Shown: in pieces, positions 2,131 through 63,871 of the stretch | How the letters are laid out: each line of letters opens with the position of its first letter | How positions within the stretch are numbered: position 1 is the stretch's first letter | Virus record (IMG/VR): IMGVR_UViG_3300022777_000088 | Strand: one strand, 5' to 3' | Origin: a virus | DNA: 64,000 bases | Program-made: the position numbers and the translations under genes | The notes under the pieces: generated by a model | What the model was told of the DNA's origin: nothing | Databases searched by the model: none | What the model saw: the letters and a program-made list of their open reading frames with translations, nothing else

Positions 2131-2613
2131 ATGGGACGCAAAAAGTTTCCACTTCTCGAAGAGGACATCGCGGAGGCGAACGCGAAAACGAAATCGTGTG
2201 CGCAAGCCGCCGATTATCTTGATGTGGCGTACAACACCTATAAGAAGTACGCGAAGATGTACGACCTCTTTGAAGAGCAAAAGAACCAAGCGGGAAAAGG
2301 TATATCAAATGGGTACAACCTACACAAAGGCAAATACGCCTTGGACGATATACTGGCGGGGAAGTATCCAGAGTATGATAGCCTCAAGCTCAAGCAGAGG
2401 CTGATCAAAAACGATTACAAAGAAGAGAAGTGCGAGATCTGCGGATTCGACGAGAAAAACCTGTCAAACGGAAAGGTGCCTCTCTACCTCAACTATAAGA
2501 ACGGCGATAAATCCGACCACCGTGAAGAGAACATTGAGCTTGTGTGCTGGAACTGTGCGGCGGTCGTCACCGGATTCGATGTTTTACAAGATAAACGGCT
2601 GCTCATTTACTGA
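2131..2613 (+). CDS. HTH + HNH-fold protein, catalytic His residues apparently substituted
   Basis: CEIC...PLYLNYKNGD...ENIELVCWNCAA; canonical pattern is LxxDHxxG...NLxxLCxxCH. Confidence 0.7.
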   Translation: MGRKKFPLLEEDIAEANAKTKSCAQAADYLDVAYNTYKKYAKMYDLFEEQKNQAGKGISNGYNLHKGKYALDDILAGKYPEYDSLKLKQRLIKNDYKEEKCEICGFDEKNLSNGKVPLYLNYKNGDKSDHREENIELVCWNCAAVVTGFDVLQDKRLLIY

Positions 2614-2780
2614 CTCCGCCACATGCGAGAGCGTACGTCATCGGTCATGCAGGTCAAGGCAATGTCTTCATCGAAGATGATGCTTACGTCGCCGTCCTTC
2701 GAGTTTATGAGAGCAGTTCCGCAACGGTATATACCGACACCGTTCGAGAGCATGTAGGCGACTTCATGACTCTTCAGCAT
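2607..2780 (-). CDS. HExxY-family small protein (MLKSHEVAYM), 57 aa
   Basis: Translated by hand, below ORF-track cutoff; motif overlaps the TGA of the upstream gene. Confidence 0.65.
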   Translation of the reverse strand: MLKSHEVAYMLSNGVGIYRCGTALINSKDGDVSIIFDEDIALTCMTDDVRSRMWRSQ

Positions 2781-4382: not shown

Positions 4383-4625
4383 TCACAAAGATTCGGCCGA
4401 TGATGCGTCACGCATGTTCTGGATCTTCTTCTCCACTTTATATGTTGAATCTATCTGATTCCGTTTTTTTGGTTCAGCCACGACTCGAAATTTGCCGGGA
4501 TGCTTATACAATATCCAAATCAAGTCTTTTTGGGTGAGAGCGTCAAAGCTGCTACATACGTGTCGGCCACCGTCCGGACGGCTTGCAATATACTGGACTT
4601 CGTGAGGAAGAAGCAACTTCATCAC
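4383..4625 (-). CDS. HExxY-family small protein (MMKLLLPHEVQYI)
   Basis: Motif at N-terminus; VVAEP mid motif; ATGA coupling. Confidence 0.75.
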   Translation of the reverse strand: MMKLLLPHEVQYIASRPDGGRHVCSSFDALTQKDLIWILYKHPGKFRVVAEPKKRNQIDSTYKVEKKIQNMRDASSAESL

Positions 4626-6027: not shown

Positions 6028-6501
6028 ATGCCAACTGAACAGGAACGCAAATGGCTTGTGCCGGATCTTCCCGACACCTTGGAAGACGGCAACAGCATTT
6101 ACCAAGCATACCTTATCGTCACCGAAGACAGAGAAGTGCGTGTCCGGCGAAAACAGAAACCGGATGGCGCAACCGAACGTACCCTTGCCATCAAGAAAGG
6201 GAAAGGTGAGGATCGGGGGGAGTACGACACCGAACTTGACCTTCACCAGTTTCTCGATCTTGAGGAAGCGAAGGAAGGGCACGTCGAGAAGACCCGCTAC
6301 GAAATCCAGAGCGGCGAGCACTTGATTGAAGTGGACGTGTACAAGGGGAAGCTTGAAGGACTCGCGACGGCAGAAGTTGAGGATCCGAATAGATTCGAGC
6401 CGCCAGAGTGGTTCGGCCGTGAGGTTACACACAACGAAGACTACAAGAACAAGTGGCTCTCTATAAACGGACTTCCGGACGATGCTCTTGAAGAAACATG
6501 A
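6028..6501 (+). CDS. CYTH-domain (triphosphate tunnel) protein
   Basis: N-terminal EQERKWLV (ExExK), IYQAYL, RVR, EVDVY...LATAEVE, WFGREVT. Confidence 0.85.
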   Translation: MPTEQERKWLVPDLPDTLEDGNSIYQAYLIVTEDREVRVRRKQKPDGATERTLAIKKGKGEDRGEYDTELDLHQFLDLEEAKEGHVEKTRYEIQSGEHLIEVDVYKGKLEGLATAEVEDPNRFEPPEWFGREVTHNEDYKNKWLSINGLPDDALEET

Positions 6502-6706
6502 ACTGGAGTATATTCGCCAAGAGGAAAACAGAACTCACTACGTTGAAAACTACGGCGTATACTTTTCACCCGAGAACAACGGAGTGTACATATCCACTCT
6601 TAGCAAAAACCCGCCGATCTTCTGTGTTTTAGTCGATCCGGACAAATCCCAAAACGTCAAGGAAGGTTGCCATTACACATGGGCACACACAAAGAAATGC
6701 TTCTGA
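6482..6706 (+). CDS. HExxY-family small protein (MLLKKHELEYI)
   Basis: Motif; LVDPD; C-terminal W. Confidence 0.8.
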   Translation: MLLKKHELEYIRQEENRTHYVENYGVYFSPENNGVYISTLSKNPPIFCVLVDPDKSQNVKEGCHYTWAHTKKCF

Positions 6707-6945
6707 AACATGAATACCGGTACCTGAAAGAAAACTTGGAGCGTCCGAAACGCGTTGAGGTTGGGGCGTGGGTATACCAAATCTGGACGAATGTGTGGCC
6801 ACGAAAAGACGGCGTGACGTTATCGACGGTTCGATTCGATGAACCTGCGATGAAGTTTCTCGGCCAACCGACTGACACCGATCATACAATGAACGACGAC
6901 GACAAATGGCGAACCAGTTATGAGTGGTTTTTTGAAGAGTCATGA
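6697..6945 (+). CDS. HExxY-family small protein (MLLKHEYRYL)
   Basis: Motif; C-terminal YEWFF. Confidence 0.8.
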   Translation: MLLKHEYRYLKENLERPKRVEVGAWVYQIWTNVWPRKDGVTLSTVRFDEPAMKFLGQPTDTDHTMNDDDKWRTSYEWFFEES

Positions 6946-7180
6946 AGTTCGGTACATCGGCGATCGGCGGCGGCACAGTCACGTCGTCGGGTTCAGCGGG
7001 AAGTACACGGTATGGAGCCTCGACAACAGAATGTGCATTGTGCTCGTGCCGAAAACCGAAAACGTGGACTTTGTGATGGATAGTTTTGAAAGAAAGAAAG
7101 ACGATCTCGCCGTGACATATGAGTGGGAAGAGTACTTCACACAATCTTCAGGGAACTTCGACCCGGGAATTCCCGTGTAA
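6920..7180 (+). CDS. HExxY-family small protein (MSGFLKSHEVRYI)
   Basis: Motif; VLVP; YEW. Confidence 0.8.
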   Translation: MSGFLKSHEVRYIGDRRRHSHVVGFSGKYTVWSLDNRMCIVLVPKTENVDFVMDSFERKKDDLAVTYEWEEYFTQSSGNFDPGIPV

Positions 7181-7219
7181 TATAGCGCAAAATCGGGACA
7201 ACCAAACACTGATAAGCTA

Positions 7220-7315
7220 ATGGGACTGATTAGCACACTCTGTTTCGCGATAGCACTGGCAGCGACCAAAATCATGATTGAACGAGAGCTTCGCCAGTGG
7301 GGGTGGATTTCGTGA
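7220..7315 (+). CDS. putative 31-aa hydrophobic peptide
   Basis: MGLISTLCFAIALAATKIMIERELRQWGWIS fills an intergenic gap. Confidence 0.4.
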   Translation: MGLISTLCFAIALAATKIMIERELRQWGWIS

Positions 7316-7740
7316 ACTCCCTGATCAAAAAGTATCGCGAAGACCTTTACGAACACACTGAACAGCTTACAGCCGATCAGCTCAAGCTGCTCTTTCGAGA
7401 CATCAATCGGTGGGCGTCGTCATATTGCGGCCGTGGTGCAGGGCGTACTGTATTTCACGTCAACAAAAGCCTTGTGCTCAAGGTGCCTCGCCACACCGGC
7501 GCAATCGAGCAGAACAAAACCGAACACCTAAGATACCAAAATCAACTTGACTTCCCGATGGCGCCGTGCAGGCTGATTCGGGACTCGAAATCACTTCTTA
7601 TGCAAAAGGTCGATCCGGTGAGCGTGGCAAACACGGCTCTTCCCGATTGGGCTTCAAAAGTAGACGGCGGGCAAGTCGGGCGCTTGAACGGAAAGTTGCT
7701 CGCGTTTGACTACGCGAATCGAGTCCCGACGTATACATAA
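7297..7740 (+). CDS. minimal protein-kinase-like protein
   Basis: GRGAGRTVF (Gly loop), VLKVP, EQNKTE, LLMQKV, VDGGQVG, FDYA (DFG-like); start uncertain. Confidence 0.6.
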   Translation: MGVDFVNSLIKKYREDLYEHTEQLTADQLKLLFRDINRWASSYCGRGAGRTVFHVNKSLVLKVPRHTGAIEQNKTEHLRYQNQLDFPMAPCRLIRDSKSLLMQKVDPVSVANTALPDWASKVDGGQVGRLNGKLLAFDYANRVPTYT

Positions 7741-7747
7741 GGGTGAA
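7732..7747 (+). promoter_or_regulatory. putative late-type promoter
   Basis: TATACATAAGGGTGAA upstream of patatin. Confidence 0.55.
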
Positions 7748-7772
7748 GTTATAACACACACAAGAAAACGAC

Positions 7773-8660
7773 ATGGAAAAGACAGCTCTTGTTCTCGGTG
7801 GTGGTGGCGCAAAAGGCGCATATCAAGCGGAGGTCGCGACCCGCATTATCGAAGATCTTGACCTTTGCGCAATCACAGGCATATCTGCTGGCGCTCTGAA
7901 CGGCTCGATTCTCTCACAAGGAAACTCGAAGCGGCTTCGGAAGGTTTGGAAAAGCACTCGCAAGTCCGACGTATGGAGCGGGGGCCACACCCTTTGGAGG
8001 TACTGGGACTTGATTTGGGGGAACAAACTTGGCTTGTATGACAGCGACCCGCTTTACAAACAGGTGCGAAAATACTTTGACCCGAACCAAGTTGAAGTTC
8101 CGTTTCGAGCAGGATCGGTGAGCTTGGAGACCGGCAACTACGTCCAATACCAAGTCAGCCCCGATCGTAGGTACAGTGAAGAGGCGATCGAAAAAGCACG
8201 ACGTTTCGTTTGCGCGTCTGCAGCGGTACCCGGCGCTGTCGAACCAATCAAGGTGGATGACAACTTGGATATGATGGTCGACGGCGGCGTGCGAAACATG
8301 GCACCGATAAGCGATGCCCTTGATTTTGAGCCAGAGCGTATTGTCGTCATTCTCAACACCGGCATTGAAGAGGACTTGCTTACCAAAAAACAAAAACCCG
8401 GACACATCTTCGAGGTCGGAGTGTCAGCACTTGAAATCCTGCTCAACGAAACGACCATCAATGACGTGCGAACGGCTCAAAAAATCAATGACGCCGTGCA
8501 GCAAGCGGGGGGCGAGATCGGCGATTATCGTTACGTTGAGATTGACGTTATCAACCCGTCCGCAAAGATTGGGAGCCCGCGGGACTTCTCAAAGGAAGCG
8601 TATAGAAAAAGAGTGGAGGTAGCAAAGCGAGATGCAAAGCGATTTCTTTCGTCCACATGA
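7773..8660 (+). CDS. patatin-like phospholipase
   Basis: GGGGAKG, GISAG (GxSxG) and DGG motifs. Confidence 0.92.
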   Translation: MEKTALVLGGGGAKGAYQAEVATRIIEDLDLCAITGISAGALNGSILSQGNSKRLRKVWKSTRKSDVWSGGHTLWRYWDLIWGNKLGLYDSDPLYKQVRKYFDPNQVEVPFRAGSVSLETGNYVQYQVSPDRRYSEEAIEKARRFVCASAAVPGAVEPIKVDDNLDMMVDGGVRNMAPISDALDFEPERIVVILNTGIEEDLLTKKQKPGHIFEVGVSALEILLNETTINDVRTAQKINDAVQQAGGEIGDYRYVEIDVINPSAKIGSPRDFSKEAYRKRVEVAKRDAKRFLSST

Positions 8661-8850
8661 ATGGGCGTATATGCAGAAGCGGCGGCTGCCGCCAAAGTTC
8701 CCTGTGCTTACTGGAACTACAAGCGGGTACATGATTGACCCCGAACAGGAGCAAGTTCGAACCACACCGTTTGACGAAGACGGCCGTCGCCGCGAACCCT
8801 TTACCGTACCTTTCAATGACCGAAAGCAAAACGTTCTCATTTGGCAATGA
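8632..8850 (+). CDS. HExxY-family small protein (FFRPHEWAYM)
   Basis: Motif overlaps patatin stop; MIDPE; C-terminal LIWQ. Confidence 0.75.
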   Translation: MQSDFFRPHEWAYMQKRRLPPKFPVLTGTTSGYMIDPEQEQVRTTPFDEDGRRREPFTVPFNDRKQNVLIWQ

Positions 8851-9109
8851 AGCTGCTTATGCGGCACGAGATACAGGCGATGCAGCACGTCGGATTCCTT
8901 CTCTCGATAGCGAAGAATCATACAAAGTAACGGTCAATATCGACGGAAGAACAGACCCGCCGGTTCGGCAAGTTGTTTTGGCACGAACCGTTGAGAACGT
9001 ACGCCGCTGCATTCGGGGACCGACAAACACAAAAACATTCGGTCGCACAGAGGATTCGTTGGTGATCGAAACAGAGTGGCGAATGCTCATCGATGACTTT
9101 GCTTTTTAG
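8847..9109 (+). pseudogene. HExxY-family copy with frameshift (MKLLMRHEIQAM)
   Basis: Motif frame stops at 8930; the apparent remainder continues in another frame after a CT run near 8900. Confidence 0.5.
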
Positions 9110-9329
9110 ACACGAGCGCCGGTACATCACAAAAAAGTGGGCACCGCTCATTCCGTCTTTGGATGGCGGCCGAAAGTACAGCTTCTCGGTCACACGGAAG
9201 GGTGACGGAACGACAGTTATTTCCATCAGTCGGCAAGTCGACAGAAGCGAGCACGGGCCGATGATCGTCGAACCCGACCGATTTACCGAATCTGCTTACT
9301 GCGTTGAGCTTCAATGGAACGAATACTAG
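9093..9329 (+). CDS. HExxY-family small protein (MTLLFRHERRYI)
   Basis: Motif; MIVEPD; LQW. Confidence 0.8.
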   Translation: MTLLFRHERRYITKKWAPLIPSLDGGRKYSFSVTRKGDGTTVISISRQVDRSEHGPMIVEPDRFTESAYCVELQWNEY

Positions 9330-9526
9330 TAGGGCATGAAATAAGATACATTCAAGCCAACACAGTTCCGTCTGGACCCGACCTTTCGGTGTGGCGGCAA
9401 GACGTCGCGAATCCATTTGGCGCTAACCTAATCGAAGAAGGTGGGAGCTTCAGGTCAGCAGTTCGAACGACGAGTTTTTTATCAACCCCGACATGTCAAT
9501 CAAATGGAGGACACAGGCACGTATGA
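9314..9526 (+). CDS. HExxY-family small protein (MERILVGHEIRYI)
   Basis: Motif. Confidence 0.75.
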   Translation: MERILVGHEIRYIQANTVPSGPDLSVWRQDVANPFGANLIEEGGSFRSAVRTTSFLSTPTCQSNGGHRHV

Positions 9527-9765
9527 GAGATTGCTTCTGAGTCATGAACTGGAGTATATTGACAGCCGCTTACATTCTGCGTGGCCACGGCGGCGGGATC
9601 CGGAGGTCGGAGTCCTCAGAAACTATTGGCATTCGCTACGCCGTGAATCGCAAAGACGCTAAATCAGTAATCATCCGTTGTGATGGATTCTACGAACCAG
9701 ACCGAGGAATCGCGAGGCAACGAATCGGCGGCAACTACGTCAAAATCTTTAATAAAGAGGCATGA
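9504..9765 (+). pseudogene. HExxY-family copy (RLLLSHELEYI), probably frameshifted
   Basis: Motif frame ends at 9662; family-like YEPD...YVKIF continues in the 9544-9765 frame. Confidence 0.5.
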
Positions 9766-9961
9766 AGTCGCGTATTTCGACAGCAACCCGGACTTGCCGA
9801 GTCGATTCGGCACCTTCATGAGAGAGAATTACCGCATTGATCCGGATGGCGATACCGTGACCATATATCGGCAAAACACGCCGGGCTCGCCACCGACTCC
9901 CTTTCTTATCGAACCCACAGAAGTTCAAGGCATATTTGTTTGGGATGCTCAAAAAACATGA
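9680..9961 (+). CDS. HExxY-family small protein (SLIKRHEVAYF), start uncertain
   Basis: Motif; FLIEP; GIFVW. Confidence 0.7.
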   Translation: MMDSTNQTEESRGNESAATTSKSLIKRHEVAYFDSNPDLPSRFGTFMRENYRIDPDGDTVTIYRQNTPGSPPTPFLIEPTEVQGIFVWDAQKT

Positions 9962-10178
9962 AGCGAAATACGTTTGGAAGAGGCGCCGACGGCCGGATGT
10001 GCCGAGAGTAGAAAAAACGTTCGGCCCGTATGTCGTGGAAACGTCGGGAGAGTCAAAGCAAATCACTCTTCGCTATGACGGCCGCTGCGAATACGACGGC
10101 GCGGTAAAGCCGCACGGAACAATAGCCGGTGAATACATGTGGAAATGGAACAATGACGGAAGCTGTTGGTACGAATGA
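9945..10178 (+). CDS. HExxY-family small protein (MLKKHEAKYV)
   Basis: Motif; AVKP; YMWKW. Confidence 0.8.
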   Translation: MLKKHEAKYVWKRRRRPDVPRVEKTFGPYVVETSGESKQITLRYDGRCEYDGAVKPHGTIAGEYMWKWNNDGSCWYE

Positions 10179-10486
10179 ACAAGTTGCTCGCCTATCACGA
10201 CATTGAATACATCCGAAACCGTCGATCGACGTCTCCACGTGGAGCGCCATACGGATTCGCGAATCGAAGAGACGGGACATTGCTTATCGAATCAAAGTGT
10301 TGGCTTGACGACTTAGATTGGGCAATCGCACAACCGCAAGCGACGGTCGGCGAATCGCAGGACTGGAAATACTGGAAGTTCGATCCAGAACCGTGTTCGA
10401 CGCTTCGAGCAGTAGGATACAACTTGGTACGACCAACAGACGACAACCCGAAGTATTATGAGAGAATGGCTGCCCGTATCAGATGA
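10175..10486 (+). CDS. HExxY-family variant (MNKLLAYHDIEYI)
   Basis: HD in place of HE. Confidence 0.75.
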   Translation: MNKLLAYHDIEYIRNRRSTSPRGAPYGFANRRDGTLLIESKCWLDDLDWAIAQPQATVGESQDWKYWKFDPEPCSTLRAVGYNLVRPTDDNPKYYERMAARIR

Positions 10487-10613
10487 GCCGCTTCAAGACT
10501 ACGAGCGGGAACACCTGATCTTCAACAGCGAGCAAAATAGGATTCTCGAAATCAAGAGAACAGATACCAACTCGAATTCGGTGGCAATCATTGGACTTGG
10601 ATACAACAAATGA
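10458..10613 (+). CDS. HExxY-family variant (PLQDYEREHL), 51 aa
   Basis: Translated by hand; coupled to neighbours on both sides. Confidence 0.5.
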   Translation: MREWLPVSDEPLQDYEREHLIFNSEQNRILEIKRTDTNSNSVAIIGLGYNK

Positions 10614-10855
10614 AACAACAACTACTCTACGGTCACGAAGGCAAATATATTCGCGAGAACACAGCGCCGGTTTTGCATCGGCCGATATGGAGGGAATCAA
10701 CTTCAACGGGTCGCGACCTTGGGAAGATAAAACCAAGAAAGAATGGGAAGTCGGAGTCAAAGAGTGGTTCGAGCCAATGCGATCGGACTTTCGAGAGCTA
10801 CGAAGATATAGCAAACTCATGGAGCTATTCGCGAAACACGAACAACGATATTTGA
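10610..10855 (+). CDS. HExxY-family small protein (MKQQLLYGHEGKYI)
   Basis: Motif. Confidence 0.7.
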   Translation: MKQQLLYGHEGKYIRENTAPVLHRPIWRESTSTGRDLGKIKPRKNGKSESKSGSSQCDRTFESYEDIANSWSYSRNTNNDI

Positions 10856-11097
10856 AAAAAGGACTCGGGCATCCGCCCGACGACTGCGAAGACGCGACCG
10901 AGTGGCACAGCCGAACAGGAAGAGACCCGGCGAAGCGCCTCTACCATTACACAGTGATGTGGCATCCAAAAAAAGAGCGGCTGCAAGCATTCGCCCCACC
11001 GAGTGACCTTTCTCGCACAACCGATTTTCCAATCATCCCTCCACAAGACAAAGTCGAAGGCTTCAACGAGGACATCTATTTGGTGTGGTCATTATGA
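10819..11097 (+). CDS. HExxY-family small protein (MELFAKHEQRYL)
   Basis: Motif; PIIPP; IYLVW. Confidence 0.8.
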   Translation: MELFAKHEQRYLKKGLGHPPDDCEDATEWHSRTGRDPAKRLYHYTVMWHPKKERLQAFAPPSDLSRTTDFPIIPPQDKVEGFNEDIYLVWSL

Positions 11098-11217
11098 AGC
11101 ACGAACGAGAGTACATCCGTCATACCCTCCAGGACTACAAACAAGTCGGCACAAACTGCAGAAACTGAAATGGACCTGTCAGACAAAGTCGACGAGCACT
11201 ACCGATGGACTTGCTAA
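11094..11217 (+). pseudogene. HExxY-family copy (MKHEREYI), truncated or frameshifted
   Basis: Motif frame stops at 11168; the +1 frame ends ...DEHYRWTC. Confidence 0.5.
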
Positions 11218-11402
11218 TGAAGCACGAGCTTCGCTTTCCGACACCGAAGGCGGCTCCATCAACTGGACGACACTGGACTCTGGCGGCTTCGGCTGAATCT
11301 TTTTTTTGGCAAAGACCCCGACCGCTTATACACGGCCGAGCCCCGACCGCTTATACACGGCCGAGCCCCGACCGCTTATACACGGCCCCTCACAAAACTT
11401 GA
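11205..11402 (+). pseudogene. degenerate HExxY copy (MDLLMKHELRF) running into the 25-bp repeats
   Basis: Motif present; 3' part consists of the tandem repeat. Confidence 0.45.
11316..11387. repeat. 25-bp tandem repeat, 2 full copies + 22 bp (CCCCGACCGCTTATACACGGCCGAG)
   Basis: Read directly from the sequence. Confidence 0.95.
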
Positions 11403-11599
11403 ACAAAAGGTAGAGAAGGGCAACTACGATCTATGAGCGGGGACGGCTTGACACACACTTTATGTGTGGGTATCAAACGGTAAGCCAAAACACGGATTTG
11501 ACAGGCTTTCTTGCTGTTTTGATGGCGCAGCGTGAAGCGAAAATAAGCAGTGTAACACTCTTCATAAAACTTCCGGTAAAATCACCGCGCGCGCGAACC

Positions 11600-11803
11600 A
11601 TGCTCTACAATCACGAAATTCGGTACATCACCGCCCGGGGCTCCGAGCCCTGGGGGCTGCACGACACCGCCACCGTGGACCTAAACGACCGGCGTCTGAC
11701 GCTGCGCTATCGAAATCACGAACCCGGCGGATGGCTGGTCGATCCGGACGCTGTGGCCGATACGTCGGCAGGCGGGGCGTTTGCGTTCTGGAACTTCACG
11801 TGA
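11600..11803 (+). CDS. HExxY-family small protein (MLYNHEIRYI)
   Basis: Motif; WLVDPD; FAFW. Confidence 0.8.
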   Translation: MLYNHEIRYITARGSEPWGLHDTATVDLNDRRLTLRYRNHEPGGWLVDPDAVADTSAGGAFAFWNFT

Positions 11804-11953
11804 ATGTATGCGTGCGGGCGCGCCCGCGTGTTGAGGGCACAGGCGGGCAACGTGACACCTTGAAGTGTATGCGCGCGCGTCGGCGCGCGTGTGACGGCCA
11901 CTGCCACCGATCGGACACCCTCAACCATATGCGTGCGGGCGCGCGCGTATGGT

Positions 11954-12057
11954 GTCACCGAGGGCGACAAGGGTGGATCAGTCACCGAGGGCGACAAGGG
12001 TGGATCAGTCACCGAGGGCGACAAGGGTGGATCAGTCACCGAGGGCGACAAGGGTGG
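11954..12057. repeat. 27-bp tandem repeat, 3 full copies + 23 bp (GTCACCGAGGGCGACAAGGGTGGATCA)
   Basis: Read directly; identical units, no spacers. Confidence 0.95.
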
Positions 12058-12242
12058 GGGTGATTTTGGACTGATTTCTTTTGGGGGTGGGGGTTGCATA
12101 TGAAGGGGGTGTGTGGTATGGTCTCGAAAGAGGGACCGATTTTTTCCGCACGCGACTTCGCACGGAATGATTCCCATACGCGACATATTCCCCCACTGAC
12201 AACTTTTTCTTGCTTCTAAACTTTTTCGCGACCGATTTACAT

Positions 12243-12461
12243 ATGGAACAGCTTTTGATGAAACATGAACGAAACTATATGCGGTGTCGGCTGACAAAAG
12301 TGATGGCCGGACCCTATCTTTTTGATAGCACTCGGGACAGCCTCGTGGTTTCGACAAAAGATTCGGAATTCCGGGGATGCATTGCAAATCCGAGTGAGAA
12401 AAATGTTCGCAGCGACTCAACTGGAACAAAGTTCGTGCAAAAGATATGGACATGCTCTTGA
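12243..12461 (+). CDS. HExxY-family small protein (MEQLLMKHERNYM)
   Basis: Motif; IANP; QKIW. Confidence 0.8.
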   Translation: MEQLLMKHERNYMRCRLTKVMAGPYLFDSTRDSLVVSTKDSEFRGCIANPSEKNVRSDSTGTKFVQKIWTCS

Positions 12462-12816
12462 AACACGAATGCCGGGATTGCAAAAGGCGCAAAAACTTGA
12501 TTACGCCATCCGTCCGATGAAAACGTACACCCGTCTCGCTGGATCAACTGTATTTTTGAATGGACGGTTTGACTACGTAGACGAAGACAGCTATTGGGTT
12601 TCTTGCAGACATCACCTTTCTTTTGCTGAGCCACCGAAGGCGTTTCGGCCGACGTCCGGCCCTGCGGTTGAAGATCTTTGGCGATGCTCAGTTCCAGACA
12701 AAATCAGCACGTCAAAAAAGCGAGAAGCCAAACCGTTCACTGCCCCAAAACTTCAAATCGAAGGTATATGGTATGTTGAAAGTTCACGAAAGAAAATACA
12801 TACTCACAAACAGTGA
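12446..12816 (+). pseudogene. degenerate HExxY copy or copies (MDMLLKHECR; LLLSHRRRF)
   Basis: Motif frame stops after 24 codons; family-like segments are spread over different frames. Confidence 0.45.
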
Positions 12817-13006
12817 AGGAAAATATCGGCGCTTTGTTCGGTCGTCAGATGGACTTGGAGAGTGGATTGTTCACGCGCACCCGAAGCGCAATGCCGTTGG
12901 CATCGAAAACAAGCACCTTTCGAAATACAACTCCCGGCGGATCGTCGATCCCGACGCTCTGCACGACGTCACAAGCGAAGGCGTGACCGGACAATGGATT
13001 TACTGA
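12773..13006 (+). CDS. HExxY-family small protein (MLKVHERKYI)
   Basis: Motif; IVDPD; GQWIY. Confidence 0.8.
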   Translation: MLKVHERKYILTNSEGKYRRFVRSSDGLGEWIVHAHPKRNAVGIENKHLSKYNSRRIVDPDALHDVTSEGVTGQWIY

Positions 13007-13161
13007 AAGAGTGAGAAGTGAGTTATCTCCGGTCTGCACTTCAGTTCGAGCCAAAACCTTGCGGCAAATGTCCGGACGGCCACACGTGGGAAGCGTGGGT
13101 TTTGACCGGCGGCAGTTTCGCGCTTATCGAAAACGGAAACCTAATAAAAATTCACAGGTGA
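12994..13161 (+). pseudogene. HExxY copy with in-frame TGA at the His position (MDLLKE*EVSYL)
   Basis: TGA at 13012-13014; frame otherwise open to 13161. Confidence 0.55.
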
Positions 13162-13613
13162 AACAGGGCGTCGAACCAGAGGCCGCAATCTTTCATTTTT
13201 TCTATTACGCTTTCGTCGTCCCCGAGCACGACAACGGCTTGAGCACCCGCCACTCGAACACCGTCTTCGGTGCACTTTCTTAGAGCAAGCCGAAGCCCCC
13301 GCCCCGAGTTCGCGAGATCTTCGACGAGAACGGCAGGCTTAGATTTGTCAATCGGCCCTTCCACGAGGCGATTGCGGTCATATCCCTTTCGGTGCTTTCG
13401 GATCATGCCGCCCCGAAGCCCTTCTGCAGTGATTGCTCCAACGACTGGGTAGGCGCCGAGTCCTTCCCCGACGACTTGCGTGTATCCTTTCTTTCGAATC
13501 GCCTCTGCCATGCGGCGGCCAACTCTTCGCGACACTTCTGGATTGCCCATTGGTTCCCGCAAATCAACGACTCCGTCTTGTACAGCCTCTTCAACTAAAA
13601 CTTCTCCGATCAT
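13152..13613 (-). CDS. type I phosphoribosyltransferase, orotate-PRT-like
   Basis: IRKHRKGYD...VEG, PRPP-binding loop VLVEDLANSG. Confidence 0.75.
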   Translation of the reverse strand: MIGEVLVEEAVQDGVVDLREPMGNPEVSRRVGRRMAEAIRKKGYTQVVGEGLGAYPVVGAITAEGLRGGMIRKHRKGYDRNRLVEGPIDKSKPAVLVEDLANSGRGLRLALRKCTEDGVRVAGAQAVVVLGDDESVIEKMKDCGLWFDALFHL

Positions 13614-13620
13614 CTTTTTT

Positions 13621-13636
13621 GATATATACAGGTGAA
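13621..13636 (+). promoter_or_regulatory. putative late-type promoter
   Basis: GATATATACAGGTGAA upstream of ATG 13655. Confidence 0.55.
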
Positions 13637-13654
13637 CCCAATCGATAAAGCATA

Positions 13655-14506
13655 ATGGCAATCTTCGGATCAAAAAGCAGTCCTCAAATCAATCCAGTTA
13701 CCGTTACGGAAACAGTTCACGACGTGGAAGCAGATAACGTCTCGATTGACGTTGTGCTTGCGGAAGTGGACAGCGGCTCCGGATTTACGGGAGTGAATGA
13801 GCCATCTTCAAACGTTTCGTGGCTTTCGGTGAGCACTTCTTCTTCGACCCCAATGGACGTGACAAACGTAGACATCGATATAACTGTGGATCCCGCTGAT
13901 ATCGATATTGGCAACAAGTACCGGATCGAGATCACCGCAGATGACGGGACGGACACGTTGACGAAGACAAAAACAATCGAAGTCCTCAACGAACTTCCAT
14001 TTCCCACTGTGGGATTCACGGTTGACGCGACTTGGGACGACGACTCCGACTACCAAGACTTGGCTAGTGCGACGGTAGCCAGTTCACAAGCCACCGTTTC
14101 AATCTCAAGTGGAGATGATGGCGTGATTATGGAAGCTGGAGCAAGCGGGTCTGGAATGGCTCTTTGGGCAGAAAGTGGAAACCTATTCTTCGCTTGTGGA
14201 GACGGAGGTTCCACCGGACCGACTGCCTCAACTGCCTGGATAAGCGGTTCCTTGCCCACAGGAAATGATTTGCTAATCACGTGGTCTGCTTCCACCGTTA
14301 CGGACAATGCCGCTCTGTATGTCGGCGATCAGCTTATTGGAACTGACACGTTCGATAACTCAAAGATTGCTGGTGAAAACGACGGGGGAATCGGCCGAAT
14401 ACACAACGGGATTCGAAACGGCGTGAATCCAAATACAGACGATTTTGACGGCACGGTAACGAAAGCCGAAATCTATCTCGACGAAGCAACTCCCGAGGTC
14501 CGATAG
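13655..14506 (+). CDS. acidic virion-type protein with Ig-like and LamG/concanavalin-like domains
   Basis: LITWSAST...AALYVGDQLIG, GGIGR, DFDGTV pattern of laminin-G-like lectins. Confidence 0.6.
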   Translation: MAIFGSKSSPQINPVTVTETVHDVEADNVSIDVVLAEVDSGSGFTGVNEPSSNVSWLSVSTSSSTPMDVTNVDIDITVDPADIDIGNKYRIEITADDGTDTLTKTKTIEVLNELPFPTVGFTVDATWDDDSDYQDLASATVASSQATVSISSGDDGVIMEAGASGSGMALWAESGNLFFACGDGGSTGPTASTAWISGSLPTGNDLLITWSASTVTDNAALYVGDQLIGTDTFDNSKIAGENDGGIGRIHNGIRNGVNPNTDDFDGTVTKAEIYLDEATPEVR

Positions 14507-14508
14507 AA

Positions 14509-14718
14509 ATGTTTGCCAAACACGAGCTTCACTACGCGTTCGATCGGCCGGATGGCACCGGATCCGTTCCTGCGAAATCTGGTCTCAACGGCGGCGTCCA
14601 AAACGGAGTTCTTCATTTTATCTTCATGAACCCCGGCGACCACTTCCTGTTTCGAGAGTCTGATCAGCAGCTTGAACAGACATGGGCGGAATACCAACTC
14701 ACAAAACCGTCGGGTTAG
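14509..14718 (+). CDS. HExxY-family small protein (MFAKHELHYA)
   Basis: Motif; FMNP; QTW. Confidence 0.8.
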   Translation: MFAKHELHYAFDRPDGTGSVPAKSGLNGGVQNGVLHFIFMNPGDHFLFRESDQQLEQTWAEYQLTKPSG

Positions 14719-14719
14719 A

Positions 14720-15427
14720 TTATTCCGTGTCAAAGTCAACGCCCTTCACTGTATTCAGGTACTCGGCGTAAACGAGAAAGATGAGAAATACGCCTACGAG
14801 CACGTTGATGACGTTGAAGTGCACGGCGCCGAACACGATCAAAGCCAACCCACCGAGGCTTCCAAGAAACGTTGCTGCTCGCGTCGCGTGTTTGACCCCA
14901 ATGGCTTGGGCTAGAAGTGACCGAAAAATGCGGCCGCCGTCCGAAGGATAAATCGGAAGCATGTTGAACGCGAAGAACACAAAGTTCAGAATCGCGAACA
15001 ACGCCCAAAACTCCGGTGTCCACGGGGCGTGAGCAAATGGGCTGCCGCCATTGGCAAGCATTTCAAAAGCGTTGCCTGAAAGCAGTAACGTTGTCCAAAT
15101 GAACAAAATCAGATTGACCATCGGCCCGGCAATCGATATCCGAAACTCGTCCCACGTGCCGGTCGGAATGTCCTCAAAGCCCGCGATTCCCCCGATGGCG
15201 ATTAGGTGAATGTCTTCGATGTCGTAGCCGAGCCGCAAACCTTCCCACATGTGAGCGTACTCGTGAATGGCGATAACGGTGAAGAGCGTCGTTGTCGTTA
15301 TTACGCCGTACCAAAACTGTGGCGTCCAAAACGCGAATGTGGGTACGATAATCGCGTAGAAAATGAGCATCGACCAGTGAGCGTAAAGAGGCACGCCCAT
15401 CCAGGTGCCAAGGTGAATCTTGTTCAT
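14720..15427 (-). CDS. site-2 protease (peptidase M50)
   Basis: HEYAH, AGPMVN, NMLPIYPSDGG, multiple TM segments. Confidence 0.92.
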   Translation of the reverse strand: MNKIHLGTWMGVPLYAHWSMLIFYAIIVPTFAFWTPQFWYGVITTTTLFTVIAIHEYAHMWEGLRLGYDIEDIHLIAIGGIAGFEDIPTGTWDEFRISIAGPMVNLILFIWTTLLLSGNAFEMLANGGSPFAHAPWTPEFWALFAILNFVFFAFNMLPIYPSDGGRIFRSLLAQAIGVKHATRAATFLGSLGGLALIVFGAVHFNVINVLVGVFLIFLVYAEYLNTVKGVDFDTE

Positions 15428-20927: not shown

Positions 20928-21518
20928 TTAGTTTGGGTTGTATTGACGTTTGATTGACCCTTCGGGAACAATGATTTGTGTATACGGCCCATCCAACGAC
21001 TCCACCTTTTCTGGATCTGTCGGAAAATACCAGATATAGTTTGCTTCAGTTTCGTACCACACTCTCACAATTTTCGGCTGAACGGACTTGTCCGCTTCCT
21101 CAACGTATGTATCTGTTGCGGGAAGCCTTCGGTTGATTGCGCCTTTGTCGGTGTCGACGTAATAGTAGTACATCTTTCTTCCGTCAACCGATCCGGTGCC
21201 AAGGAAAAACTCGCCGGAAAGGGTCGTCGAATTCGAGAGTGAAATGATTTCCGTTTCGCCACGATACTTTTGCCAGTCGTCGGGCGTGGTCATAAACTCC
21301 CCGAGTCCAAGGGCGATTATAAATCCAATGACGCCGCCTATGAACCCTCCCATTACCGCAAAGAATGAAGTGGGTTCCCACGGATCGTTATACGAGTAGA
21401 GGAACCCGCCTCCACCTACGATAAGAGCGAAAAGAACAACGAAAAACATTAGAAGAAGAACAAGATTGTGATGATTGCGACAGTTATGTGAGCGCCGATT
21501 TCCTTTCCTGCTTGCCAA
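20928..21518 (-). CDS. membrane-anchored protein with two N-terminal TM segments
   Basis: Hydrophobic N-terminus, soluble C-terminal domain. Confidence 0.65.
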   Translation of the reverse strand: MASRKGNRRSHNCRNHHNLVLLLMFFVVLFALIVGGGGFLYSYNDPWEPTSFFAVMGGFIGGVIGFIIALGLGEFMTTPDDWQKYRGETEIISLSNSTTLSGEFFLGTGSVDGRKMYYYYVDTDKGAINRRLPATDTYVEEADKSVQPKIVRVWYETEANYIWYFPTDPEKVESLDGPYTQIIVPEGSIKRQYNPN

Positions 21519-21730
21519 CGAACTTCAGAGAAGTGTAGAAGTAAAAATCGACGTCGCCAGAGAGGGTTGTCATACGCTTGATGCGCGACTTCGTAGTCGT
21601 ATATCTCTTTCATGTATTCAATTTCATGCCGTTTGGGTTTGGACTTAACCACTTTCTGAACAAACGGCCGTAAAGAATGAAGCAGAGTTGGCCGGACATT
21701 TTCAGTTGGAGGGATGTCAGAGTTTGGCAT
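21449..21730 (-). CDS. HExxY-motif protein (KPKRHEIEYM)
   Basis: Motif after a ~30-aa leader. Confidence 0.6.
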   Translation of the reverse strand: MPNSDIPPTENVRPTLLHSLRPFVQKVVKSKPKRHEIEYMKEIYDYEVAHQAYDNPLWRRRFLLLHFSEVRWQAGKEIGAHITVAIITILFFF

Positions 21731-22691: not shown

Positions 22692-22853
22692 TTACTCCAC
22701 TTTCATTGTCTGGATTTTTTCAATATATCCTTCTTGTCCGGACTTTTTTTTTACTATGTACTTCTTTTCATGAAAAGTAAAAACGTTTTCTATTTTCTCA
22801 GTGAGAAAATGATCAAGCCTATCGATATTGTATTGAAGCCTAAAGTTGTTCAT
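22692..22853 (-). CDS. AT-rich HExxY-motif protein (VFTFHEKKYIV), 53 aa
   Basis: Translated by hand. Confidence 0.6.
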   Translation of the reverse strand: MNNFRLQYNIDRLDHFLTEKIENVFTFHEKKYIVKKKSGQEGYIEKIQTMKVE

Positions 22854-23414: not shown

Positions 23415-23744
23415 TTAGAGGCCATCTGAGCCGCTCTGAGCCTTGCGTTCAATATAAGAAATCTCGTGAGAAGAAAAAAGACTGCCGTCAAAAAGTTTTG
23501 TGAAGTCTTCGGCACTCGTCCACTTTGACAGATAGTGAACGCGAGTGCCGCCTCGCTCGACATCGGACACCGCTTCGGTGATGTGGTCGGAGTCTTCGAC
23601 GTCGAAACTCGCGATTCGGCGGCAAAGTTGTTCGGCCGCACTTTTGGAGACGGTTCGGCTCGCCTTTTTTACAAACTGCTGAACGGGAGTCTTGGGAAGT
23701 GCTGTCATAAACAACAAAAGGGCGAGAGCCAAAGCGGCCCTCAC
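23415..23744 (-). CDS. hypothetical protein with signal peptide
   Basis: MRAALALALLLFMTA. Confidence 0.6.
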   Translation of the reverse strand: MRAALALALLLFMTALPKTPVQQFVKKASRTVSKSAAEQLCRRIASFDVEDSDHITEAVSDVERGGTRVHYLSKWTSAEDFTKLFDGSLFSSHEISYIERKAQSGSDGL

Positions 23745-29692: not shown

Positions 29693-30208
29693 ATGAAAAA
29701 ACCACTGAGTGAAGTCGTCGATTCCAACAAAATTTACAAAGACGTTCGGCAGCACGTCTTGGACTTGGCGGTTGGCGTTCCAGATTTCTTTGCTGGCCAC
29801 GAGCTTGATTACCTTTCGAGCCGGATTTCGTATGAAGACCGGGACCTCGCTATTGCGGCCGTGTATTGGGCGAAGCGTGTTGGGCACCGAGACGAGATGG
29901 CTCGGCTTTGCAAAAGGCACGGGGACCCCGAAGATCGTGCGGAGTTCGCTATGCTTCTCAACTCGTACCGAAAACAAATGAAAGCGACGATTGACAGTGC
30001 TCGTGGAGCGGTGGCTTGGGCCGAACGGTTTCCCGAAGACAGAGATGAAATGCGATCTTTGGTTGGCGGCGGCGAGTGGGCGTTCGAGTGGGCGAAGCGT
30101 GTCGGGGACAAAGAAGAGATGAAGTCTCGAATCTCAACGACGTACTGGAAAGTCCAGTTCGAGCGGGAGATCGAAGAAGACGAGAATGCCAGTTTTGTTT
30201 CACGATGA
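29693..30208 (+). CDS. helical repeat protein
   Basis: WAKRVGHRDEM / WAERFPEDRDEM / WAKRVGDKEEM. Confidence 0.65.
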   Translation: MKKPLSEVVDSNKIYKDVRQHVLDLAVGVPDFFAGHELDYLSSRISYEDRDLAIAAVYWAKRVGHRDEMARLCKRHGDPEDRAEFAMLLNSYRKQMKATIDSARGAVAWAERFPEDRDEMRSLVGGGEWAFEWAKRVGDKEEMKSRISTTYWKVQFEREIEEDENASFVSR

Positions 30209-30414
30209 ACTTGCTTGCTCGACATGAAGCTGATTACGTTCGGAACAAAGGGGCCTTGGAAAACAAGCTGACGTCGGACACGTACGTTCCCAAAGAGCTT
30301 TGGATCAAGGACAACAAGTATTTCTTCTATGTGCAGCAAAACTTAGTTCAGGTGATGTCCCGAATGGCGAATAAGTCCGAGTGCCTGCATGGAGCGGAAG
30401 ACTGGATCGTGTGA
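30205..30414 (+). CDS. HExxY-family small protein (MNLLARHEADYV)
   Basis: Motif; C-terminal DWIV. Confidence 0.8.
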   Translation: MNLLARHEADYVRNKGALENKLTSDTYVPKELWIKDNKYFFYVQQNLVQVMSRMANKSECLHGAEDWIV

Positions 30415-30448: not shown

Positions 30449-30658
30449 GTGCAGAAACACGTTGTCGTCAAACTCAGTCGATTTGCAAAGCACGAGAGGC
30501 GATACATGTTTCCTCGCCTCTGGAGCACCCGGCCGTGGGCGTTTGCGAAATATCTTTTTCCACGTCCCCCGCGGCAAACTCCGCATCCAATAATGCCGCC
30601 AACGGGCGACTTTCGAGTTGTTGCCCACAGGGACCTTGATTTCGAACCTCCAACATAA
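30449..30658 (+). CDS. HExxY-motif protein (RFAKHERRYM)
   Basis: Motif; start uncertain. Confidence 0.5.
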   Translation: MQKHVVVKLSRFAKHERRYMFPRLWSTRPWAFAKYLFPRPPRQTPHPIMPPTGDFRVVAHRDLDFEPPT

Positions 30659-33909: not shown

Positions 33910-34899
33910 ATGCTTGATCGCGTAGGACACGCAGAGGTTGATACCTCTGAGATGGTCGAAACTCCCGAGAGTCCGCAAGAAATGCGGGACTTTCTTTCAA
34001 ACCGTGCCGTTGACTTGAAGCCGCCATACTTCAAGCTCAGCGACATGAAATGGAAACACGCAATCCGTTCCGCTCTTCGCGGAAAGAACCTCATGTTCAC
34101 CGGCCCTTCGGGTTGCGGAAAGACAATGGGCGTGATGGAGGTTCGCAAGGCGCTCAAGCGACCCTTCCACTACATGAACTTGGGTTCCACGCAGGACCCC
34201 CGGACCACACTCATTGGAACGCGTGAAGCAAACGAAGGCACCACGTACTTCAAGCCCGCGCCGTTCGTGAACGTGATTCAGAATGAGAATTCGATGGTGC
34301 TTCTTGACGAGATTTCTCGTGCGCACCCCGAGGCGTGGAACATTCTTCTCACCGTCCTCGACCCGAAGCAGCGGTACTTGCAGATTGACGAGGCCGCCGA
34401 GTCCGATAAGGTTCAGGTTGCCGATGGCGTCTGCTTTATGAGCACCGCCAACATCGGAACGCAGTACACGGCGACTCGACAGATGGACCGCGCACTTGAA
34501 GAGCGGTTCACGATCATCGAAATGGACATCCTTGAGGAAGATCAGGAGTTCGATCTTCTCTCCAAGCTGTTCCCTTCGGTACCGGACGAGAAGCTTCAAA
34601 CGCTTGCTCGAATCGCGGACGAAACCCGCATTGAGGTTCAGCAGGCACAGCCGAAGCTCAACCGGATCATCTCGACCCGACAGACGGTTCAGATGGCCGA
34701 ACAGCTTCGTGACGGCTACTCCATGATGGAGGCCATTCACGTTACCGTCTACCCGAACTACGACCAGGAAGGCGGCGACCAGAGCCCACGAAGCACCGTC
34801 CAGAAGATCGTTCAGAAGGAAGTCGACGAGCAGGACGTTGATTCGGTGCTCTTTGACCGTGACGACATGCGGTTCAGCCGTGAAATGAGCGGATCTTAA
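33910..34899 (+). CDS. MoxR/CobS/CbbQ-like AAA+ ATPase
   Basis: GPSGCGKT, VLLDEISRA, MSTANIG, MDRALEERF. Confidence 0.9.
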   Translation: MLDRVGHAEVDTSEMVETPESPQEMRDFLSNRAVDLKPPYFKLSDMKWKHAIRSALRGKNLMFTGPSGCGKTMGVMEVRKALKRPFHYMNLGSTQDPRTTLIGTREANEGTTYFKPAPFVNVIQNENSMVLLDEISRAHPEAWNILLTVLDPKQRYLQIDEAAESDKVQVADGVCFMSTANIGTQYTATRQMDRALEERFTIIEMDILEEDQEFDLLSKLFPSVPDEKLQTLARIADETRIEVQQAQPKLNRIISTRQTVQMAEQLRDGYSMMEAIHVTVYPNYDQEGGDQSPRSTVQKIVQKEVDEQDVDSVLFDRDDMRFSREMSGS

Positions 34900-39470: not shown

Positions 39471-39674
39471 ATGAATCTGTTGTTGAATCATGAAAATGAG
39501 TACCTTCGAGAAAGAGAAGAAAAGGAAGTAAAAGTTTCTATCGGGGACGAAGGCGCCAAACTCTATTTTGTAGATTACGGAACTGTACATTATTACGATC
39601 ACTATCCGGATGAAATATCTCATTTGATTAGTCCGAATATACGTAAGGGTACTGTAAATTGGCCATATGGATAG
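39471..39674 (+). CDS. HExxY-family small protein (MNLLLNHENEYL)
   Basis: Motif; LISP; VNW. Confidence 0.8.
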   Translation: MNLLLNHENEYLREREEKEVKVSIGDEGAKLYFVDYGTVHYYDHYPDEISHLISPNIRKGTVNWPYG

Positions 39675-40176: not shown

Positions 40177-40655
40177 CCGATTACGCGAAGTCACATGTTA
40201 GTCAAGACAACTGGCCAGCGCCAAAGCGCAGCTCGTTTGTGTATTCAATGAGCCAGAAAGAGCGCATTGAAGCGCTTGCCTCGTCTGGATGGCCAAACTT
40301 CGATTGGTCGAACGAGTGGGTTGCCTTTTTCGAGCAGGAAGACTTTGATCGGCAAATCGATGTCGACGCACGGAGTGGCAAACTTCAAGAGGCGTTCAAC
40401 ATTCGCACGGCAGCCGACCTTCAAACGAAAGAAGACGGCAAGGCATACCTCAAAAAACTCAAAACTGAAAGAGAGCGGGACGATCGGTTCGGCACTCCAC
40501 TTTCTGCGATAGAGTGTCGAGAGGACGGCAAGTACATCAAAGGCACGGACGCAAGCTTGCGCACATGGCTTCGGTACGAAGACGAAGCAAGGGGGGAAGA
40601 GTTTTTCGACGAATACGACGTGCCACCTGAAGTTGAAGAGAAGTTTCGGCAATGA
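40173..40655 (+). CDS. hypothetical protein
   Basis: Coupled ORF. Confidence 0.65.
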   Translation: MTDYAKSHVSQDNWPAPKRSSFVYSMSQKERIEALASSGWPNFDWSNEWVAFFEQEDFDRQIDVDARSGKLQEAFNIRTAADLQTKEDGKAYLKKLKTERERDDRFGTPLSAIECREDGKYIKGTDASLRTWLRYEDEARGEEFFDEYDVPPEVEEKFRQ

Positions 40656-40825
40656 GATTCAATCTGAAAGAGCGAGGCATACTTTCTTCGGCGTTCTATA
40701 ATGAAGACGATAATGTACTTCTGAAACACGAGAAAAAATACATCAACGAAAACAATAGAGAGAAAGTTGAATTGGTAAGAGAATGGGGTGATGAGATCAA
40801 CTTTACTTTCTCCGTGGGAGATTGA
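40652..40825 (+). CDS. HExxY-motif protein (NVLLKHEKKYI), 57 aa
   Basis: Translated by hand. Confidence 0.7.
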   Translation: MRFNLKERGILSSAFYNEDDNVLLKHEKKYINENNREKVELVREWGDEINFTFSVGD

Positions 40826-40827
40826 TT

Positions 40828-40992
40828 ATGTTTCAACACGAAAAGAAAAAGAGCCTTTGCGTATCTACCGAAACGTTTGATTATGTCATCCAGAATAATG
40901 GTACAGTGTTCAACCACCGCTACCTTGTAGAAGACTGTGTGGTTGAACCAAAAAGCTTTGCTGGAAAAGGGACAAAACGAGTTTGGCGATGA
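40828..40992 (+). CDS. HExxY-family variant (MFQHEKKK...VVEP...RVW), 54 aa
   Basis: Translated by hand. Confidence 0.65.
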   Translation: MFQHEKKKSLCVSTETFDYVIQNNGTVFNHRYLVEDCVVEPKSFAGKGTKRVWR

Positions 40993-59444: not shown

Positions 59445-59810
59445 ATGTATCTTCCTCAAGAAAAGTTAGAAAACGTTGAGTACTACGAGTGTTACACGGG
59501 CGAGATGTCTTATCAAATGGACGGAAAGCCTGTGCAGAAAGACATCATCATTCTTCATTTTGGGGAGTGGACGAAACGGTGGAAGCTCTTTGGACTCACT
59601 GTGTGGTCGAAAACGATGGAAGACCGCACGAAGAAGTTTGTGTTCAAGCGAAACCGCAACGTCAAAGATATAGACGAAGGGCTTTACACTTTTAAGCTCG
59701 ACGAAGAGTTCAAAGAGCTTCGCGCACAACTCGAAGCGTATTTTGATAACGAGTTCTACGAAGTCTACAAAGAGTTGAAAGAGCATGAAATCAATTACGC
59801 GATCAGCTAA
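59445..59810 (+). CDS. hypothetical protein ending LKEHEINYAIS
   Basis: C-terminal HExxY motif. Confidence 0.7.
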   Translation: MYLPQEKLENVEYYECYTGEMSYQMDGKPVQKDIIILHFGEWTKRWKLFGLTVWSKTMEDRTKKFVFKRNRNVKDIDEGLYTFKLDEEFKELRAQLEAYFDNEFYEVYKELKEHEINYAIS

Positions 59811-62561: not shown

Positions 62562-62692
62562 GGGCACAGTTTCCGGCCGCCACATGTTAGAATACGATGA
62601 AGACGGAACATTCTGGTGCGACGCCTGTGGAAGACAGTACCAATACGAAGACGAAAGTCTCGTTCCCTACGGGCAAAGCCAAAAGGCGGAAA

Positions 62693-63022: not shown

Positions 63023-63023
63023 T

Positions 63024-63658: not shown

Positions 63659-63871
63659 ATGTACGTCACAAAGGACACTTTCAGGAGAGATCCATTGCCA
63701 CCGCCGAACAAGACTCGCGTTGAAGGGGGAACTCGATACAAATGCGGCCTTTGCGGAAGTGATATGAAGAAACGGTGGATATTCTTTGGCGACAAAACAT
63801 GTGTCAACAACGACTGTTTAAGCCACTACCTGAAAGGGCACGAGCTATCCTACTTGAAAGAGGCTCTGTGA
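63659..63871 (+). CDS. Zn-ribbon protein ending LKGHELSYLKEAL
   Basis: CGLC...CVNNDC plus C-terminal HExxY. Confidence 0.65.
   Translation: MYVTKDTFRRDPLPPPNKTRVEGGTRYKCGLCGSDMKKRWIFFGDKTCVNNDCLSHYLKGHELSYLKEAL

Follow-up and report, generated by a model that had tools for sequence, protein, structure and literature searches.

A HExxY motif heads a family of small predicted phage proteins and recurs at the C-termini of unrelated ones

The encapsulation peptides of bacterial microcompartments and the cargo-loading peptides of encapsulins are carried at either the N or the C terminus of their proteins, and the signals by which proteases recognize their substrates (those of ClpX and Lon, for example) likewise occur at either end of otherwise unrelated proteins. 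In T-even phages, the internal proteins are diverse, their one common feature being a conserved N-terminal capsid-targeting sequence (PMC3012670). Here we analyse a 64,000-nucleotide stretch of viral DNA (IMG/VR record IMGVR_UViG_3300022777_000088; hereafter the window), in which a short motif, HExxY, opens a run of small open reading frames (ORFs) on the plus strand at 6482–13006 and again at 14509–14718, with further copies scattered over both strands, all at the positions given in the initial annotation of this DNA. The run appears to encode an old family of distinct small proteins, and the same motif lies at the C-termini of proteins unrelated to that family. We tentatively favour, at just short of an even chance, the reading that the HExxY helix is a terminal module by which proteins dock on, or are addressed to, one common partner. 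Such a portable helix would bring many different small proteins to one partner or place, and each body would carry out a job specific to its paralogue.

The motif occurs well above chance, which confirms the initial observation. HE..Y[ILM] has 26 matches in a six-frame translation of the window, compared with a mean of 0.31 and a maximum of 3 in 200 dinucleotide-preserving shuffles, and the start-proximal form M-x(1-8)-HE..Y[ILMV] has 19, compared with 0.02 expected. The consensus is fuller than the one first given: it reads φ-φ-x-x-H-E-x-x-Y-φ-x-x-(R/N/K), where φ is a hydrophobic residue, and R, N or K occupies its last position at 23 of the 29 sites. The conserved positions would share one face of an amphipathic helix, and different residues (K, L, A, Y, M, S and others) are found two positions ahead of the invariant Glu. 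Across the 29 motif sites, codon use is mixed for His (CAT 16, CAC 13), Glu (GAA 21, GAG 8) and Tyr (TAC 20, TAT 9), and many different codons serve the Leu and Ile positions. A literature search found no paper connecting HExxY to phage.

Comparison with related phages indicates that the HExxY ORFs are real protein-coding genes. In a closely related phage found in a different sample (loci L004, L008 and L009; flanks 72–87% identical in DNA), an orthologue with an intact open frame is present for all six members tested, at amino-acid identities of 32–76%, and independent gene callers predicted the same ORFs on other assemblies. The ratio of non-synonymous to synonymous divergence (dN/dS) is 0.24–0.37 in the four of six orthologue pairs for which dS could be estimated; the neighbouring genes (CYTH, patatin and others) lie mostly at 0.02–0.18, with one small ORF at 0.45. 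Divided by module, the orthologue pairs give 0.10 (N-terminal part), 0.35 (middle) and 0.22 (C-terminal part), all of them rough figures because module-wise dS (1.2–1.9) is close to saturation. These values point to purifying selection on the family genes. Diversifying selection on the body was considered and rejected, because the middle-module ratio, crude as it is, is itself that of purifying selection. Given that synonymous codons vary and that the N-terminal module combines its low ratio with a dS of around 1.9, the constraint acts on the peptide and not on the DNA, in agreement with the initial annotation.

The genes follow one another closely, head to tail, and most members start 1–26 nt before the preceding stop, including those that follow the unrelated CYTH and patatin genes; the first member of the run (6482..6706) starts 20 nt ahead of the upstream CYTH stop. 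In five cases (6499, 6943, 8658, 9763 and 9959), the upstream TGA lies within the CA-TGA-A of the His-Glu codons, the CYTH stop falling in those of 6482..6706 and the patatin stop in those of 8632..8850. Because the upstream stop sits there, CAT is in excess for the motif His, at 55% of motifs compared with 16% in long genes. Neither the 23 long genes nor the 19 family genes examined are preceded by a Shine–Dalgarno sequence, the upstream regions being A/C-rich, and scans for sigma-70 promoters and terminators over 5.5–15.5 kb found no excess over shuffles; the members are therefore probably translated in a coupled manner from long polycistronic transcripts. The CAT excess and the five junctions betray some pressure at the nucleotide level, as would be expected if the repeated element were a nucleic-acid signal (for translation coupling, start-site choice or regulation) and the peptide a by-product. 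However, 13 of the 29 motifs use CAC and have no TGA, the third positions of the His, Glu, Tyr and Leu/Ile codons all vary, and the N-terminal module is saturated in synonymous divergence at a dN/dS of 0.10. Conservation of the motif extends, moreover, to C-termini, positions that involve no gene start. A nucleic-acid signal is thus largely refuted and retains only a very slight chance of being correct.

Members share a layout in which the N-terminal helix is followed by a very divergent β-rich body, a φ-φ-x-P element and a C-terminal φ-x-W. An alignment of 40 sequences (the window members plus those from five other contigs) shows no variation at H and Y and at least 90% conservation at E, P and W, and a 45-member alignment has the same pattern. 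The conserved Pro sits in φ-φ-x-P and the conserved Trp 0–10 residues from the end in most members, bearing out what had first been noted of these two elements. A profile of the body was built with the N-terminal module removed and from distant phages (L005, L006, L007, L013, P0021 and P0022) because circularity was to be avoided. This profile scores the window bodies above length-matched control ORFs (Mann–Whitney p = 8e-8), with one window member ranking first among 1,530 ORFs. The main family is therefore homologous along its whole length, with a weak signal in the body.

Recent tandem duplication was rejected as the source of the array, because pairwise comparison of paralogue bodies inside the window recovers no recognizable similarity (best E 0.003). 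Each paralogue has its own one-to-one orthologue in related metagenomic phages. Because orthologues are recognizable between phages (E 1e-9 to 1e-31) whereas the paralogue bodies within the window are not, the paralogues are old and individually kept. The initial annotation had described a library of hypervariable payloads. That description does not survive, because the bodies are homologous, the middle module is under purifying selection and each paralogue is conserved across phages; the array is better seen as an old set of distinct genes than as a library with fast turnover.

The family body has never been seen without the helix, except in one frameshifted copy. His, Glu and Tyr commonly serve as ligands or in catalysis, and their conservation with Pro and Trp across 40 members from several phages would also suit an integral site, in which the helix contributes a metal-binding, nucleotide- or ligand-binding, or catalytic His/Glu/Tyr set that is completed by the conserved Pro and Trp, with no docking involved. 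The paralogues would then be variants of one biochemical activity. Against this, at least twenty paralogues of one small enzyme or binder per genome would be unusual, and the motif also lies at the extreme C terminus of unrelated proteins that have no Pro/Trp body, a placement not easily reconciled with a site to which the entire domain contributes. We regard an integral site as the first of the alternatives, although unlikely.

The C-terminal copies at 59–64 kb, all on the plus strand, suggest that the helix is portable. Two proteins unrelated to the family end in the motif, one of 121 amino acids (59445..59810) and one of 141 (62597–63022), as does a Cys-rich protein of 70 amino acids (63659..63871), and two small ORFs carry it close to the C terminus (62925–63233, with Tyr in place of His, and 63193–63348). 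In some of the unrelated proteins the motif is 1–4 residues ahead of the stop. A second phage contig (L024), which is syntenic with 52–64 kb of the window at around 40–80% amino-acid identity, keeps a C-terminal HE..[YF] in its orthologues of four of these ORFs: 59445–59810 (with Phe for Tyr), 62597–63022, 62925–63233 (with His) and 63659–63871. The 62597–63022 protein has five homologues from other samples (49–73% identity), all with the motif at the end, and across the six homologues of this family E and Y never vary and H is substituted once. L026, a contig that reaches 6.6 kb past the window, has a further five small ORFs of around 50–80 amino acids (L026:6100–7350, around 3.4–4.7 kb from the 3′ end of the window) with the motif 9–29 residues before the stop. 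The motif also heads membrane-anchored proteins with a hydrophobic C-terminal anchor, in the window and in a more distant relative (L001). A basic-x-Gly-Phe-x-Lys stretch precedes the motif in several of the C-terminal-motif ORFs, including several on L026. Because some of the ORFs with this stretch may be paralogues, the exact number of independent C-terminal-motif families is uncertain, but it is at least four. The initial annotation had spoken of a constant tag on varied proteins. This part of the claim holds in so far as the helix behaves as a portable module, C-terminal in unrelated families and in their orthologues; in the main family, the bodies that carry it are themselves homologous.

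Structure prediction and database searches give the family a predicted outline and no known kin. AlphaFold2 models of two members, based on family alignments, place an N-terminal helix at residues 4–13 and 6–16 (pLDDT around 80), followed by three to five strands, and the family is accordingly modelled as α+β proteins. A homodimer prediction for one member scored 0.04, a value that speaks neither way on self-association. No family match below E = 0.01 was obtained in Pfam-A, PHROGs v4, NCBIfam 20 or PDB sequences. Foldseek searches of PDB, AFDB clusters and BFVD gave nothing above noise (best E 0.14–0.9), an exhaustive VIA-align comparison with 48,161 chains reached a best Z of 3.7, with no fold above noise, and look-alikes in the ESM Atlas were all under 0.85, the Atlas's own model being poor. 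When 1.84 billion representative proteins were searched with a profile, only 24 matched at E < 0.001, all of 57–136 amino acids and all bearing the motif. Both family and motif are undescribed, as the initial annotation had proposed for the family.

Several points weigh against a docking or address module. A run search found the sequence in metagenomic DNA runs only and in no RNA run. The overall confidence of the two models is moderate (pLDDT 69 and 65; pTM 0.49 and 0.31), and the models leave two options, a helix packed on the sheet or one free to dock. A metal, ligand or catalytic site would be an equally good role for the invariant His, Glu and Tyr. The C-terminal-motif ORFs with the basic-x-Gly-Phe-x-Lys stretch may also amount to one further paralogous family, which would reduce the number of independent occurrences. 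A bolder form of the docking reading, which we consider doubtful, is that the helix is a 'sorting code' read at either protein end by one receptor (in the procapsid or another phage-built structure) or by a host hub, and that it routes at least forty small proteins from at least five unrelated families. If this were true, it would be by far the largest motif-addressed repertoire known in phage and the first whose signal works at both termini.

Within the docking reading, the most attractive specific version, by analogy, would be an encapsulation or capsid-targeting type of signal; the target might about as well be a host-cell hub (a protease, polymerase or ribosome, for example). A capsid- or scaffold-targeting signal would see the proteins packed in the head and injected with the DNA, to act as early anti-defence or takeover factors in the manner of T4 internal proteins. 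The encapsulation peptides of compartments, being N- or C-terminal, match both placements seen here, and the HExxY proteins are small, numerous and faster-evolving than the neighbouring enzymes. The T-even internal proteins supply a precedent (PMC3012670). Yet the motif has no known likeness to the T4 capsid-targeting sequence and no conserved Leu/Ile-x-Glu protease site, the window holds no head, scaffold or prohead-protease gene, and the arrays lie among metabolic and early-type genes. Packaging into the head is accordingly an unlikely explanation in our judgement.

The helix could also act in protein turnover. Were it a degron for an AAA+ protease or unfoldase of the host or of the phage, the many small early proteins would share a common, timed lifetime; known protease signals occur at either terminus, as the motif does, and the phage itself encodes AAA+ ATPases (53261–54352 and 33910–34899). 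Degrons are usually degenerate, however, whereas His, Glu and Tyr are invariant here, and no protease domain adjoins either ATPase, which leaves this explanation improbable.

If the docking reading is correct and the helix is an address label, it would provide a sequence handle that groups dozens of small phage 'dark matter' ORFs by destination. The common receptor could then be fished with a 13-residue peptide, and the tag might be usable to deliver foreign proteins, a purpose for which the T4 targeting sequence has reportedly been employed already. Even without docking, the HExxY proteins are a new and well-delimited family with five near-invariant residues, found in a few lineages of large uncultured myoviruses.

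By the full-length profile, the window encodes around 18 full-length members of 57–103 amino acids, and around ten further ORFs are partial (the N-terminal module alone), frameshifted or variant copies. The figure of about 32 members that was first put forward is therefore right for some 18; the remainder have the N-terminal module only, are truncated or frameshifted, or bear the motif in another protein context. The main run, on the plus strand throughout, opens with three full-length members: 6482..6706 (74 amino acids; profile E 2.8e-16; orthologue in L008, dN/dS 0.37), 6697..6945 (82 amino acids; overlapping the first by 10 nt; orthologue P0011/L008, dN/dS 0.26) and 6920..7180 (86 amino acids; only 32% identical to its L008 orthologue, with the termini kept). 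Two non-family genes inside the array, at 7297..8660, encode a 147-amino-acid protein (PHROG 4301, of unknown function) and the patatin-like phospholipase. Full-length members resume at 8632..8850 (72 amino acids; orthologue P0010) and 9093..9329 (78 amino acids). They are followed by two ORFs, 9314–9526 and 9531–9662, that match the profile only at positions 1–34 and 3–33 and are probably decayed or frameshifted members. In the member at 9683..9961, the motif lies at codon 27 of the ATG-defined ORF, so that its true start is uncertain. Next come a full-length member of 77 amino acids (9945..10178) and one of 103 with a C-terminal extension (10175..10486), the two joined by an ATGA start/stop overlap.

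The second half of the run lies on the same strand. An 81-amino-acid ORF at 10610..10855 has the N-terminal module by profile and an unrecognizable body, and it is followed by a full-length member of 92 amino acids (10819..11097), a truncated copy that is a stump of 24 codons (11094–11168) and a variant copy with the module first and Phe for Tyr (11205–11402). Three full-length members stand at 11600..11803 (67 amino acids), 12243..12461 (72) and 12773..13006 (77); the last was the first AlphaFold2 target and has orthologues in P0009 (76% identity, dN/dS 0.27) and at L001:1415–1642. A 69-amino-acid member with Ala after the Tyr (14509..14718) ends the series. Around four direct repeats of 27 bp break the array at 11800–12110, in a G+C-rich segment in which no family member is found; their minus-strand reading encodes a repeated Pro/Ser-rich peptide of nine residues within the ORF 11716–12492.

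Among the scattered copies, two minus-strand members lie upstream of the run, at 2607..2780 (57 amino acids; orthologue L004:4875–5054, dN/dS 0.24) and 4383..4622 (79 amino acids; orthologue L004:1298–1495). A plus-strand cluster comprises a larger helical protein that carries the motif close to the N terminus (29765–30208), a full family member (30205–30414) and a variant (30449–30658), and the L001 orthologues of all three keep the motif. Farther along the same strand are a member of 67 amino acids (39471..39674), a member split over two frames (N-terminal module at 40652–40825, body at 40795–40989) and an intact member, the second AlphaFold2 target, at 40989–41198. The members split between frames (40652–40989 and 9531–9765) could reflect decay, an assembly error or frameshifting. 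On the minus strand, the motif occurs in other contexts in three ORFs, 21449–21652, 22692–22853 and 23415–23570, and in the last two it is near the C terminus. A weak variant of it, Glu-His-Glu-x-Asp-Phe-Phe, is found in the acidic N-terminal region of an AAA+ ATPase (window 53261–54352; L024:1097–2194) and is conserved in both phages.

Tandem arrays of the family are present in the close relative (L004 and L008) and in the more distant L001, and a second array-bearing lineage is represented by L006 and by an 86-kb IMG/VR contig (G001), a myovirus with a tail sheath, family-A polymerase, RecA and inteins. The family arrays thus occur in at least two divergent myovirus lineages; in the parts available, a GIY-YIG homing endonuclease is the only other gene that the second lineage shares with the window. 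Homing endonucleases of the GIY-YIG and LAGLIDADG types and Hint/intein pieces are frequent in these phages (window 41982–42782; G001 12912–13598; L026 2700–3861 and 5568–6218). Among 50,697 phage records there was no near-identity DNA match to 6400–14800, and tblastn with one member against phages gave no match. Searching IMG/VR with the CCA-adding enzyme of the window as query found no related locus. A degenerate DNA pattern for M-K-L/F-L/F-x-x-H-E-x-x-Y-I/M returned seven matches, of which one was a true relative. Another IMG/VR contig (L016, 37% G+C) has a 97-amino-acid ORF at 10854–11147 with the motif first, three Cys-x-x-Cys pairs and a Trp end; it is either a family relative that bears a zinc ribbon (profile E 1e-6) or a chance match to the DNA pattern.

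The window belongs to a contig of around 134 kb and is part of a large uncultured myovirus-type phage, whose genes here include tRNAs, the CCA-adding enzyme, an Rnl1-type ligase, NAPRTase and a MoxR/VWA pair. Its best relatives are a 484-kb uncultured phage (LR756508) and the Microcystis phage Mel-JY01, the top relatives for the CCA-adding enzyme and the MoxR-type ATPase; a profile search of these two genomes found no family member, an empty result that carries little weight. The proteome is acidic, with a median pI of 4.7 for 29 larger ORFs compared with 6.7 for the HExxY family. Because Shine–Dalgarno sequences are missing, upstream regions are A/C-rich and the proteome is acidic, there are hints of a non-Shine–Dalgarno host (for example, a cyanobacterium or a member of the Bacteroidota), perhaps in a saline habitat. 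A haloarchaeal virus, which the acidic proteome and the missing Shine–Dalgarno sequences had brought to mind, was rejected as the source because the closest relatives are bacterial phages.

How, then, does the HExxY family compare with described systems? The zincin metalloproteases, with HExxH, offer a formal likeness in that His-Glu-x-x-(aromatic or His) lies on one face of a helix. Membership was rejected because the second His ligand is replaced: position +4 is Tyr in 40 of 40 aligned members and Tyr or Phe in other contexts, and never a second His. The HExxY proteins, moreover, are 57–100 amino acids long and lack both a third ligand motif and a protease fold. The MGF genes of ASFV, the poxvirus ankyrin/PRANC proteins and the RxLR and Y/F/WxC effector repertoires resemble the HExxY family in having tens of paralogues, tandem arrays and a short terminal motif on an otherwise divergent protein. 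Those systems, however, belong to eukaryotic viruses or pathogens and have no sequence relation to it, and the HExxY paralogues are old and individually conserved rather than recently amplified.

Closer in design are the targeting peptides of microcompartments and encapsulins, in which a short terminal helix on diverse cargo, at either terminus and with a variable linker, is read by one shell. The HExxY motif likewise forms a terminal helix (predicted at residues 4–13) with both N- and C-terminal placement. It is polar/aromatic and invariant, whereas the cargo peptides are degenerate and hydrophobic, so that the resemblance is functional only. General scans of the window proteins, which cover part of the genome and did not include a dedicated search, found no shell, BMC or encapsulin domain.

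The T4 internal proteins (IPI, IPII, IPIII and Alt) are the nearest comparison within phages. Both systems consist of several to many small proteins with one short conserved N-terminal peptide, evolve faster than their neighbours and occupy plastic regions of a large myovirus genome. The T4 prohead protease cleaves by the rule Leu/Ile-x-Glu, and the HExxY tag has no such site, the residue two before its Glu being variable; nor is its sequence known to be related to the T4 targeting consensus. The T4 proteins are unrelated to each other, whereas the main-family HExxY bodies are homologous, with unrelated payloads found only among the C-terminal-motif proteins. The HExxY motif also lies at C-termini, and its copies are far more numerous (at least 28 in the 64-kb window and more beyond). 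By its sequence, by the cleavage-site rule and by the relatedness of its payloads, the HExxY system therefore falls outside the T4 class, and what the two systems may share is their working principle alone.

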